64,000 nucleotides of DNA from Dictyostelium discoideum (GCA_000004695.1 CM000153.2:768001-832000); one strand, 5' to 3'; positions 36,040 through 52,857 are shown, numbered from the stretch's first letter. Notes: generated from the letters alone by a model not told the origin. A program made the numbers and translations.

Positions 36040-36690
36040 ATTCTTTATTGAAAAGGGAGTGCCAGAAATTGAAGTTTAATTTTTAATTTCATTTAATGGT
36101 ACTAAAGTACATAAGATATCCACAGTATCTGGTGGACTATTAATTACGAATGGAATTGAGAAATCTTGATTTGAAAGTAAAGGTGAAGGAGTTGAATAAT
36201 TGAGTTGTTTTTCAACATTTGAGTGATTAGTATTAAAAATATATCCTGGTGATGATGGAGAATTTTTAAATTGATTAATAATTTCAATTGGAATTTTATC
36301 TAGTCTACATTTTATTTTGCCAGTTAATTGTTGTAGATTGATTTAAGACCAAATCATTAATGTAAAATAATGATGATAAACATTTCTTTATGATTGAATG
36401 TATAATTGGATCATTTTTAGTTTTTTCAGATTGTTGTTTTAAAATATTCATTGTAATATCATCTACTGCATCTAAACCAATTGAATTTTGGAAACTTGGA
36501 TTATTTCTAAATGAATTTCTACCTTCTTTAATTAAATCATAAATTTCATGAACTTCTCTCCAAGAATTCTCACATTCTGTTAAAAGTTTAATAATATTTT
36601 CACCAACTTTAAAAATATTATTTAAATCGGCTTCTGGTGATGGGAAATTACCAGTACCAAGTGAACCAGGTCACATATAAAAGTCTAAAA
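36040..36690 (-). pseudogene. Degraded fragment of the C-terminal domain of the NTPase-RING-patatin family, remnant of a further array member
   Basis: About 85-90% nucleotide identity to 42030..42700 and 47525..48190. In-frame stop ('ttgaagtttaattttt'). Lacks the rest of the gene. Similarity ends abruptly at about 36690. Confidence 0.7.
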
Positions 36691-37454
36691 CAAATTTAAT
36701 ACAAAAAAAAAAAAAAAAATTAAAATAAAATAAATAAAAAAATCTTTTAAAAATAGTCACAACAAAAATTAAAAAAAAAAAACATAACGATAAAAAAAAA
36801 CAGTTTAGGCCATTAATAATTTAAAAATGGATTTATTTTAAAAAAAAAAAAAAAAAAAAAAAAATTTTTTTTAATAAAATATTTCTTATTTTTTTTTTTT
36901 TTCAGATATTTTTAAATAATAAAATAGTCAATATTTTCCATTTAGTTTATTTAAACTCATTTTATTCCAAATAAATTAATAAAATAGTCCCAAAAAATAA
37001 TAAGAAATTTTTTTTTTAAAAAAAAAAAAAAAAAAAAAAAAAAAAAAAAAAAAAATTAAATAAATGATTTTTAATTCATTTTTAAACAAAATAATTTAAA
37101 ATTAATATTTATCTCAGGTTATAAAAAAAGATATCAATAGATATTATAAAAGACCATAGATATTTATAATTTCCAAATCTATTTATATAAAATTAATTCA
37201 TTTTCAAACTTTATTACCAAAAAAAAAAAAAGTAAATATTAGACACATAGAATTAATTTAAAAATATATTTTTTTATTTTATTTGTTTTTTTTATTGTAA
37301 ATTTTAATTAAGATATATAGAAATTATAGTTTTTTTTTTTTAATAATATATTAAAATATTTTTTTTTTATAATTTTAAAATGTTATTGGCAATTAATTTA
37401 AATAAAATTTATAAATGGTAAATTGCCAATGGATTTGATTAATTGTATGAATTT

Positions 37455-40400
37455 TTAATTTTTAGTAGTTATGAATGAATTCTCTATACCATTATTTATT
37501 GAAAAAGGATTACCTGAAATTGAAGTATCATTTTTAATATTATTTTTTGCAACCATAGTACATAAGATATCAATTATATCTGGTGGATTTTTGATTATGA
37601 ATGGATTTGAAAAATTATTTAATTGATTATTTGGGTGTGGAGGTGAAGGAGAAAAATATTGAAAATTTTTATCATTGTTTGAATACTTTAATACAAAAGC
37701 TGAACCTTTTTTTAATTGATTAATTATTTCGATTGGAATTTTATCAAGTCTACATTTTATATTACCAGTTAATTCTTTTTTAGATTTATTAAAAATTAAA
37801 TCATCAATGTAAAATAATGATGATAAAGATTTCTTTATAATTGAATGTACAGTTGGATCATTTTCAATGTTTACTTTTTGTTTTAAAATATTCATTGTAT
37901 TATCATCCATTTCATCCAAACCAATTGATTTCTGGAAACTTGGATTGTACCTAAATGAATTTTTACCTTCCCATATGAAACCATAATAAATTTCATGAAC
38001 TTCTCTCCAAGAATTTATAGATTGTGTTAAAAGATTATATTCCTGATCACCAACTTTAAAAATGTTATTTTTTTGATTTTCTGGTGATGGGAAATCACCA
38101 GTACCAAGTGAAACTAACGTGTCTAAGTTTCTACAAGGCCACATATCTTTATACTCTTTCATTGCAACTTTACAAGGATTATTATTCTTTAAACCACCAT
38201 CAAGAAATTGACGACTATTATATTCAAATGTTCTGAAATATTTAGGTGCAGCTGATGTGGCTTCAGCTGCGTCAGTTACTTTTGAACCAGATATAAAATG
38301 TGTTTGTTTTGAACATTTTGATGGGTATGTTTTTTTTTGATAATTTGAAAATATACACTCATCAAAATCACCAGACTCTTGTGTTACAGTTACAACTGCA
38401 GCCCTTATTTTTGGAAATGAAATTGATAAAAATTTGTCATTTAAAATGGTTTTATAACATTCTTTTAGTTTTTTTCTTTTATATTTGGGTTTTCCAAATA
38501 TATGGGTAATAATACCCAATGTAGGTCTTTCATAACCTTTTTTTGCCAAAATGTCAAATGATATAGCTAATTCTGGTAGTGTTTTCTCAGTTGATGCAAG
38601 TTGTAAAGCAACTAATCCACCTGCAGATGTACCAACAATTAAATCAAACAATTTTGAAATATGAATACCATATAGTTGCTTTTGTATTTCTTGTAAAACA
38701 TTGCAATGTAATATACCTCTAACTCCTCCACCATCCAATGATAGAACTCTTGCACCCATTGTTTTAATAAAATCTATTTCCTTTAATATATATTCTCTAT
38801 CCCCATAACATCCTGGAACTCTACATTCATCTTTAGGTCGATCAGGCATTTGAGAAAATATACCAAGTGAGCAATCTAAACATAGAAAATGTCCACATTT
38901 ATATTCTATATATGGAGAATTTAAACAACAACCAAAACAAACACCTTGATTTGTTGTTGCATGGCCAATGAAAACTTGTTTAATTGTTTCTTTACCAGAG
39001 AGGTGATTACTTAATAATAATGATAAATCATCATATTTTACTGATTCATCAAATTCTCCATCCCATGTATATCTTACTTCTGATTGGTTAAAAAAAGAGC
39101 CAAATATTTCAGTGTGCTTGGGTTTATATGTTTCACTTGATATATGCTTTGTATGAGTACCCCTAAAATTTGTACATGAATAGCCATGTACATTTTTTGA
39201 ACCACACGGTACCATCCCATGTATTTCACCTGATACTAGTTCTAATATGCTTTCAAAACGTGGATGCAATTTTTTAGAATACTCTGGACCTATGTGGTAA
39301 ATTTTTTTAAAATTTGTGTAAATCTCTGGCAATCTAAATTTTAATATATTCAAACAATGGGTGTAACTTTTTGATTCTTTTGAATTACATTTAAATGTTT
39401 CAACAAAATAATAATAATTTATTAAAAAGAATTCAAATAAGTAGTTGGCATGTAAATTTATCATTTGATCTGTCAAAGAATGTTCTTGATTTTTTGAATA
39501 AATTGGCAAAGTTGATTCTTCACTTCCAGATTTATGATTTTGATGTAAATTATCTAAGTCTGGATTAGTTTGAAAAAGACCATCTACTATTGGTCTTTCT
39601 TCTAGTTGTGTTTTATCAATATAATTATTATTATTATTATTATTATTATTATTATTATTATTATTATTATTATTATTATTATTATTATTATTATTATTAT
39701 TATTATTATTATTATTATTATAATTATTATTATTATTATTAGTATTATTAATATTATTATTATTATTATTATGATTTTTATTATTATTATTAGATGAAGT
39801 AGTTGTAGTTGTTGTTTTATTACTGATATTTGCCTCTCTATCCTTTAATATATCTGGTTCAAAATAAGATTCTTCTGAATTTATTGAAAATGTTATTGGT
39901 GTTCCTAAAAGATTTTGAATGGATTTAATTGATGAATCAGAAAATGTGTAATGTGACATATTCCCAATTTTATTTGAAGAAGAAGAAGAACTTGGCAAAT
40001 CTTCATCTGCATTAAAATTAATATAATTATTATTATTATTATTATTATTATTATTATTATTATTATTATTATTATTATTATTATTATTATTATTATCATT
40101 ACTATTATTTGAAGTGAAATTTCTAAAAATTTTATTTGTTGATTTTGGTTCTTGAAAATTTGAAAAATCATCAATAATTCCAGTACAATTTAATTTAACT
40201 AAATCGGGTGAACCTATTGGATTTTTACTAAAGAAATTAGTTAAATTTGAAATTCTTTTCATACATTTTGATTTTTCAACAGAAATTTTTGGAGTTCTAT
40301 TATTTTTAAATTTTAAAGATTCTAAAACCTTTTCACTAATAGTTTCTTCCAATTTTTTAAATTGACTTTGATATCTATTAAAAGAATCTAATTCCTTTCC

Positions 40401-52235: not shown

Positions 52236-52484
52236 TTTTTTTTTTTTTTTTTTTTTATTTGGTATTAAAGTTATTATTATTATTATTTTTTTTTTTTATT
52301 TGATACTACTGTTATTGTTAATTTTGTTTTTTTTTTTTTTTTTTTTTTTTTCGCAGTGCAATAAAAAAAAAAAAAATTAAGATTAAAAAAAAAAAAAAAA
52401 AAACAATTAAAAAAAAAAAAAAAAAAAAAAAAAAAAAGAATCTTTTTAAAAGATATTATTTAATATCTTATTTCTTTTATCAAC

Positions 52485-52725
52485 TTAAAATCCAAATTAT
52501 TTTTTTTTTCCATTTAAAAATTCAACCACTTAAATGCTTCCAAATTTTTTTTTTTTTTTTTAAAAATCCTAATTTTGATTTTTTGGCCCAATATCATTTT
52601 TTAATTTTTAAAGAAAATAAAAATCCAAATTATTTTTTTTTCCATTTAAAAATTCAACCACTTAAATGCTTCCAAATTTTTTTTTTTTTTTTTAAAATCT
52701 TAATTTTTAAAGAAAATAAAAAAAG
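52485..52725. promoter_or_regulatory. Tandem ~134-bp duplication in the putative promoter of array copy 3, carrying the non-AT-rich motif 'TTCAACCACTTAAATGCTTCCAAA'. The motif recurs at 46045..46110 upstream of copy 2.
   Basis: Unit at 52487..52620 repeated at 52621..52725. The same 24-mer core is seen at about 52520, 52655, 46060 and 46085. The function is inferred only from position 250-500 nt upstream of the first exon. Confidence 0.4.
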
Positions 52726-52857
52726 AATTAATAATAACAATAAAATTAAATGTAATATCAACAATTTTAAATTCTAAAAATAAACTTTTTTTTTTTTTTT
52801 TTAGTTTAACACGAGTTTTTTTTTATTTGTTTTTTTTTTATTATTTATTTATTTCAT

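Follow-up and report, generated by a model that had tools for sequence, protein, structure and literature searches.

A tandem array of predicted G domain, zinc finger and patatin-like phospholipase fusion genes in Dictyostelium discoideum

Four homologous units on the minus strand

We analysed a 64,000-nucleotide stretch of the Dictyostelium discoideum genome (GCA_000004695.1, CM000153.2:768001-832000; the window, from whose first letter all positions are counted). Three genes, here called A, B and C, and a remnant make up a head-to-tail series of four homologous units, all on the minus strand, in the interval bounded by a calreticulin gene and a small C2-domain gene. They were delimited by open reading frame (ORF) listing, repeat finding and tblastn with the spliced gene A protein, and the tblastn search found no further family copies in the 64-kb window outside these four units. 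The original prediction, made from the sequence of the window, had described at least three minus-strand paralogs and a degraded fragment in head-to-tail order, and all three methods bear out both its coordinates and its description.

Gene A (37455-41494, minus strand) is intact and is the sole intact family copy in the array of this genome. It has two exons (exon 1, 41494-40835; exon 2, 40733-37455 including the stop codon) separated by a GT..AG intron of 101 nt in phase 0 (40834-40734). Splicing is in frame and yields a predicted protein of 1312 aa with no internal stops. The G domain encoded by gene A spans this intron. As the domain is incomplete unless exon 1 is joined to exon 2, and is continuous in the homologous proteins of other species, the data argue strongly, but only indirectly, that the two exons share one transcript.

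Genes B and C share 96% DNA identity with a period of ~5.49 kb and, as read from their sequences, are recent duplicates. Gene B (42010-~45969, minus strand) is an exon-loss copy without the B-box and without the G1-G3 motifs of the G domain. The DNA alignment of the two genes places the loss, ~870 bp relative to gene C, over exon 1, the intron and the opening codons of exon 2. What remains of gene B is an open frame of 1305 codons, whose first in-frame ATG is at 'MAFAKNEYF' and whose patatin domain matches Pfam Patatin with E 1.4e-31. The alignment runs on upstream past the deletion, such that ~300 bp on the promoter side of gene B (45975-46270, minus strand) are retained; their homologous counterpart upstream of gene C is at 52480-52800. 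Part of this upstream region of gene C (52480-52700, minus strand) carries a direct repeat of ~60 nt (…tttggaagcatttaagtggttgaatttttaaatggaaaaaaaa…), of which a single copy is kept upstream of gene B.

Gene C (47506-52235, minus strand) has an exon 1 at 52235-51615, an intron of 115 nt and an exon 2 that begins at 51499. It carries a +1 frameshift, a 1-nt insertion at ~47987 (TTCCAAAAAGTC in gene C compared with TTCCAAAATTC in gene B), with loss of the C-terminal ~150 residues. The remnant (36037-36664, minus strand), recovered as a tblastn match, corresponds to the 3' end of a B/C-type gene and has 92% nucleotide identity to gene B, one frameshift and one in-frame stop. Near-identical copies, an exon-loss variant, a frameshifted copy and a remnant had all been foreseen in the original prediction, and each is present. 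A further, independent Dictyostelium assembly, L002 (GCA_054883475.1), is 99.5% identical to the window over 20 kb and encodes a gene A protein that is 100% identical. The L002 locus ends before gene C, and the remnant/A/B layout is the same as in the window, which shows that this layout is not an artefact of assembly.

Domain composition of the encoded proteins

The B-box, G domain and RING are invisible or sub-threshold when single sequences are used, and phmmer with a single sequence gave no match in the PDB at E ≤ 10. The family was collected first and family profiles were then employed. At the level of family profiles or structure, the four-part form of the original prediction (B-box, P-loop GTPase, RING and patatin) held, and the motifs it had quoted are all found in the array. 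Across amoebozoan, fungal and dinoflagellate members the GKS and D-x-E-G motifs, the RING ligands and the patatin motifs are invariant or nearly so. The profile searches and structure prediction that had been proposed as a check gave a clear Patatin match in single copies, the B-box by way of family profiles and the G domain by way of a model of a homolog. Domain coordinates below refer to gene A and to the minus strand.

The patatin-like phospholipase domain (38079-38756, residues ~880-1105) has the alpha/beta fold of patatins. The oxyanion hole DGGGVRG (residue 887), the nucleophile motif GTSAGG (residue 921, with Ser923) and the catalytic Asp in DGG (residue 1065) are present in A, B and C, and DGGG-x-R, G-T-S-x-G and DG are invariant in the family alignment. 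All three genes match Pfam Patatin (PF01734) with E values of 7e-28 to 8e-32 and 98.6-111.4 bits, against a cutoff of 27.7. The solved sequences closest to the family profile are CapV effectors of the bacterial cyclic-oligonucleotide-based anti-phage signalling system (CBASS), at E 3.7e-45; the title of a CapV entry in the PDB describes a filament with the activating nucleotide bound. Gene A scores 136.7 bits with the PADLOC "Effector Phospholipase" model compared with 98.6 bits for Pfam Patatin. The array proteins are predicted to be lipid acyl hydrolases. A family-specific helical and beta-rich region (37458-38078) follows the patatin domain and ends in a conserved ISG-x-P motif. In precomputed Pfam annotation, PF28431 is recorded beside Patatin for many fungal members (among them P0009, P0010, P0012 and P0076) and not for dictyostelid proteins; judged by the fragments that carry it, PF28431 probably corresponds to the part that follows patatin.

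The N-terminal nucleotide-binding domain (40194-41212, residues ~95-400, with the intron inside) contains G1 GSSGSGKS (134-141), G3 DSEG (187-190) and an invariant Asn (N286). In the family alignment G139, K140, S141, D187, E189 and G190 are invariant, defining G1 as GxxGxGKS and G3 as DxEG. Pfam searches of this module with single sequences returned just sub-threshold P-loop matches (MMR_HSR1) and no match to a GBP or RHD3 model. Compared with the PDB, the family profile matched Bms1 (2.7e-5), septin-2 (1e-3) and SMG-9 (4e-3), in the P-loop region only.

The fold was assessed on residues 1-400 of a Tieghemostelium homolog, P0003, modelled from an alignment that included the window exons; the model has a predicted local distance difference test (pLDDT) score of 78 and a predicted template modelling (pTM) score of 0.82. 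Fold scores were highest for GBP2 and GBP1 (21.0 each), followed by Atlastin-3 (19.6), SMG9 (19.3), Atlastin-1 (18.6), RNF112 (16.7), Sey1p (15.8) and SMG8 (14.9). The best of all others was Rag (13.1), with GIMAP7 at 12.7 and Ras-like GTPases at 11-13. The Foldseek ranking of the same model agrees. On the strength of both rankings the modelled domain is assigned to the GB1/RHD3-type, dynamin-related (GBP/atlastin-type) G domains. Helices follow the G domain in the P0003 model and in the model of the window segment, as they do in GBPs and atlastins. The original prediction was right to see a P-loop G domain in the G1 and G3 motifs, but the IRG/GIMAP/septin-like class that it proposed is ruled out by the fold scores.

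The B-box-type zinc finger (41312-41440, residues 19-61) has the ligands C19, C24, H35, C37, C40, C47, C50 and H60, which are kept in both A and C. Its family profile matches the B-boxes of CONSTANS (E 3.5e-8) and TRIM28 (5.7e-6), as well as those of MID1 and PML; several homologs match Pfam zf-B_box or ANCHR-like_BBOX as single sequences, under the curated cutoff. The putative RING-type finger (38808-38939, residues 819-862) reads C-x2-C-x10-C-x-H-x2-C-x2-C-x15-C-x4-C, with all eight ligands invariant or at least 90% conserved in the family alignment. Its profile matches RNF141 (1.6e-5), TRIM34 and TRIM5 (both ~1e-4), and also RNF8 and TRAF6. The window copies by themselves have no RING match in Pfam; the fungal homolog P0028 clears the Pfam zf-RING_UBOX cutoff.

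Between the G domain and the RING lie a low-complexity linker rich in poly-Asn, Ser and Thr (39486-40163, residues ~411-636), which cannot be aligned across the family, and a helical bundle (38940-39485). An AlphaFold2 model of the window sequence shows the bundle as three long helices followed by short strands. It contains a C-x9-C-x6-H-x2-H site (residues 730-750, window 39144-39206) that is kept from amoebae to fungi and matched no named domain. C94, C104, H111 and H114, in the numbering of a 676-aa segment, are at least 90% conserved, and the site would be a third zinc site. From the N terminus, the predicted order is B-box, GBP/atlastin-type G domain, low-complexity linker, helical bundle with its putative CCHH zinc site, RING, CapV/iPLA2-type patatin and the family-specific C-terminal domain.

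Distribution, gene turnover and selection

Searched exhaustively with HMMER and the exon-1 profile, 1.84 billion proteins yielded only 29 representatives. The sources of 20 of these were checked: named dictyostelid genomes account for 16, Synstelium and Ceratiomyxa (both EukProt) for one each, and metagenome or Logan contigs for the other two. Searching with the C-terminal half returned 176 proteins, among them many from Pezizomycotina (1000-1160 aa) and one from a dinoflagellate (Alexandrium). Local iterative searches show the fungal proteins to be homologous over the entire 400-residue N-terminal module and the entire C-terminal half, which makes the complete architecture an ancient and conserved one. 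It is found end to end in every dictyostelid sampled, in many Pezizomycotina and in Alexandrium, and also in metagenomes. Public annotation describes family members only as "patatin family protein" or "hypothetical", with some fungal members named iPLA2-gamma/PNPLA.

Adjacent pairs of family genes occur in Heterostelium (EFA75134/EFA75135), Cavenderia (EGG22749/EGG22750) and D. cf. discoideum (ACTFIZ_004361/ACTFIZ_004362). Some relatives have other modules in place of, or ahead of, the N-terminal B-box: SAM domains in P0053, a GNAT acetyltransferase in P0133 and ankyrin repeats in P0043; by analogy, such variable N-terminal modules would be typical of conflict systems. At least eight Cavenderia proteins contain the G module. 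Two from Cavenderia fasciculata, P0125 (DFA_02328) and P0127 (DFA_11948), have two tandem B-box plus GBP-like G modules and no patatin domain, which indicates that the module is also used with other partners.

The calreticulin-to-C2 interval was recovered from two further assemblies, L001 (GCA_054859385.1, labelled D. discoideum; dS, the synonymous divergence, ~0.16 to the window) and L003 (GCA_054859205.1, D. cf. discoideum). L001 has one intact C-type gene (1379 aa). Its A-type copy is interrupted in the P-loop by ~1.7 kb of unrelated sequence, followed by frameshifts and by the deletion of part of the patatin domain. The insert (L001:7434-9100), which cuts the A-type copy exactly at the P-loop and contains two ORFs (121 aa and 127 aa), may derive from a mobile element. 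In L003 the C-type gene is intact (1391 aa), the A-type is absent, and a second family copy has lost most of its patatin domain and contains an inverted piece (L003:9721-9921, matching residues ~208-274 of the C-type protein). The two intact C-type orthologs are 88-92% identical to gene C at the protein level. In the genome of the window it is the A-type that has stayed intact, and damage affects both C-type copies. All three lineages examined thus have a single intact full-length gene at the syntenic site, but the paralog differs, a pattern of reciprocal loss. Gene birth and death at this locus, as the original prediction had it, is supported: the sister assemblies keep a different paralog intact and their second copies are damaged in different ways. 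At this locus dS between the window and L001 or L003 is ~0.16-0.24, far above the within-species expectation; since this is too high for one species, L001 and L003 probably represent cryptic species.

The ratio of nonsynonymous to synonymous substitution (dN/dS) was estimated from Nei-Gojobori counts, which give rough values for DNA of such a composition. Between the intact C-type genes of L001 and L003 it is 0.38 overall, 0.08 in the patatin domain, 0.19 in the G domain, 0.25 in the B-box, 0.32 in the C-terminal domain, 0.57 in the RING and 0.85 in the linker. The intact orthologs are under purifying selection, which is strongest on the patatin and G domains; that the two enzymatic domains are the most constrained argues that the fusion works as an enzyme. 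Strong positive selection on the intact genes is ruled out by the values of 0.08-0.57 across the structured domains. Between genes B and C of the window, dN/dS is 0.69 overall, 0.74 in the patatin domain (7 synonymous and 19 nonsynonymous differences), 0.95 in the part of the G domain encoded by exon 2 (2 synonymous, 8 nonsynonymous), 0.49 in the C-terminal domain and 1.25 in the linker. The ratio is undefined for the RING (0 synonymous differences) and not applicable to the B-box, gene B being without exon 1. These high values fit decay, or relaxed constraint, of both copies, and suggest that the frameshift in gene C is real. Of the fast-evolving pattern suggested in the original prediction, the turnover of genes is borne out; pervasive positive selection is not supported, and the intact orthologs are constrained.

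Proposed function, alternatives and genomic setting

The architecture appears to be new and is made of known domains. Full-text searching, with most subscription journals outside its reach, found no description of a fusion of patatin with a GBP-type GTPase. A 2021 review of the Dictyostelium dynamin superfamily lists one GBP homolog (gnbp), Sey1 and the dynamins, and the array proteins are unmentioned (PMC8565484). The original prediction did not recognise the domain combination from any characterised protein, and the literature searched gave no account of it; it is, however, not private to this locus, given its presence in dictyostelids, Pezizomycotina, Alexandrium and metagenomes. A paper on the response to Pseudomonas reports a down-regulated "patatin family protein", DDB0191653, which could not be linked to this locus.

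Several known systems share part of the architecture. Human GBP1 and GBP2 have just 12-16% sequence identity to the array family and no significant sequence-profile match; the T(L/V)RD G4 motif, the P-loop arginine and the CaaX box of these proteins are missing from the family, which adds a B-box, a RING and a lipase. RNF112 (ZNF179), in which the RING is placed before a GB1/RHD3-type G domain, is confined to animals and lacks both B-box and patatin. Atlastins and Sey1p/RHD3 are membrane-anchored fusogens of the endoplasmic reticulum (ER) with no catalytic effector domain, unlike the array family. The CBASS lipases CapV and CapE are bacterial, stand-alone proteins of ~340 aa activated by cyclic nucleotides, whereas the upstream module of the array family is a predicted GTPase and no cyclic-nucleotide sensor is evident. 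iPLA2beta (PLA2G6) has ankyrin repeats and is controlled by calmodulin, and neither it nor plant patatin has a G domain or a RING.

In TRIM proteins the RING and B-box serve ubiquitin transfer and self-association, and many TRIMs are innate-immune effectors. The array family shares both fingers with them, and its profiles match domains of TRIM5, TRIM34 and TRIM28, but the order is reversed and the fingers are ~750 residues apart. Classification as a TRIM is ruled out by this order (B-box, G domain, helices and RING as against RING, B-box and coiled coil). The fungal NLR-like PLP-1 proteins (patatin/NB-ARC/TPR), found among the distant matches (P0099, P0111), likewise join a patatin lipase to an oligomerising P-loop NTPase. 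Their patatin domain is N-terminal and is coupled to a STAND (signal transduction ATPases with numerous domains) ATPase with repeats, whereas in the array family a dynamin-related G domain occupies the N-terminal part.

GBP/atlastin-type G domains dimerise in the nucleotide-bound state and assemble on membranes (PMC8565484). We propose that nucleotide binding by the array proteins would, in the manner of GBPs and atlastins, lead to dimerisation of the G domain and higher-order assembly on a target membrane. Assembly would gather the patatin domains and switch on phospholipid hydrolysis, as oligomerisation does for CapV, and the RING and B-box would provide ubiquitin-ligase activity or TRIM-like self-association. 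The role of such a protein would most likely be in cell-autonomous defence or regulated cell death. The most economical model, a nucleotide-gated, self-assembling phospholipase with an E3-type module that acts in defence or regulated cell death, has in our estimate an even chance of being correct. The more specific proposal, that the family is an unrecognised branch of the GBP/atlastin lineage in which a single-chain, GTP-gated, ubiquitin-ligase-equipped phospholipase serves cell-autonomous immunity or programmed cell death in amoebae and filamentous fungi, is tentative, and we lean against accepting it in full. The likeness to innate-immune effectors put forward in the original prediction gains weight from the resemblance of the G domain to GBPs and of the lipase to CapV, but it is still an inference.

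Several observations weigh against a role of this kind. G4 is noncanonical: it has an invariant Asn (LIILFNNS, with NK in many members) and lacks both a conserved Asp and the RD of GBPs (T-L/V-R-D), so that specificity for GTP is putative. The arginine finger at the position of R48 in GBP1 is absent, and the P0003 model stands in for the G domain of the window at 29-32% identity. Model confidence is low over the RING region, and the last ligand pair of the RING in the window copies is C-x4-C in place of the usual C-x2-C. The intact orthologs (L001 compared with L003) show no sign of gene-wide positive selection, the array is flanked by ordinary housekeeping genes, and relatives of the atlastin/Sey1 type serve organelle maintenance and not defence. 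Some of these points feed an alternative, that the family are housekeeping enzymes of membranes and lipids: an atlastin/Sey1-like G domain would tether or shape an organelle membrane (ER, lipid droplet, contractile vacuole or mitochondrion), the iPLA2-like patatin would remodel phospholipids and the RING would control turnover. Atlastins and Sey1p are indeed among the best structural matches, some fungal members carry iPLA2-gamma/PNPLA names, and the purifying selection and the housekeeping neighbours are as expected. The top structural matches, however, include the soluble GBPs, and by sequence the patatin domain is nearest to CBASS effectors. Copies at the locus are easily lost and the surviving paralog differs by lineage; moreover, copy number varies by species and tandem arrays recur, which would be unusual for core organelle machinery. 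We consider a housekeeping role possible but unlikely.

The lesions raise a different question, namely whether the arrangement has any function. Gene B, gene C and the remnant could be non-functional relics of unequal crossing-over, leaving gene A as the only copy that matters, and perhaps itself dispensable. The disabling lesions in all three units fit this, as do the dN/dS values of B against C, overall and in the patatin domain, beside the far lower patatin value of the intact orthologs, and the A-type gene has been destroyed in L001 and is absent from L003. Yet a full-length, intact copy survives at the site in each of the three lineages, two assemblies encode the same gene A protein, and gene B retains its 1305-codon frame together with its upstream region, such that a truncated RING-patatin product is possible. 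A mere graveyard seems improbable to us, and even decay of the other units would be compatible with either the defence or the housekeeping reading of the intact gene.

The family adds hidden GBP/atlastin-type G domains, as modelled here, to the inventory of Dictyostelium, a leading model for cell-autonomous defence, inside genes annotated merely as "patatin family protein". One chain would unite a membrane-recognising, oligomerising GTPase, a finger of the ubiquitin-ligase type and a membrane-destroying lipase, functions thought to be split among proteins in animals and bacteria. If the role in defence or cell death is correct, the array would offer a genetically tractable single-gene system for the gating of a lipase by GTPase assembly and a candidate factor by which amoebae restrict Legionella or Mycobacterium; in Pezizomycotina, the family would supply candidate genes of a new class for immunity or cell death. 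Should the family prove to be a branch of the GBP/atlastin lineage with its own executioner, it would link the logic of GBP and TRIM defence in animals to the patatin effectors of bacterial CBASS. The reciprocal loss of paralogs among close Dictyostelium lineages is a natural experiment for comparing paralog function.

The calreticulin gene at one flank of the array (52858-53742) has an HDEL end, and the small C2-domain gene at the other lies at 35052-35468. The window as a whole is extremely AT-rich, with GC content ranging from 0.13 to 0.38, and has poly-Asn tracts and spore-coat genes, which together with the calreticulin gene are hallmarks of Dictyostelium; no tRNA genes were found in its 64 kb. 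An ORF with a Dictyostelium spore-coat N-terminal domain and collagen-like repeats (19950-22130, plus strand) lies in the most GC-rich stretch (0.38), and a second ORF with the spore-coat N-terminal domain is at 56798-58078 on the minus strand. An ORF of 587 aa (59769-61532, plus strand) matches Pfam RlaP, the RNA repair pathway DNA polymerase beta family of nucleotidyltransferases, with E 2.6e-20; this family has been described mostly from bacteria.

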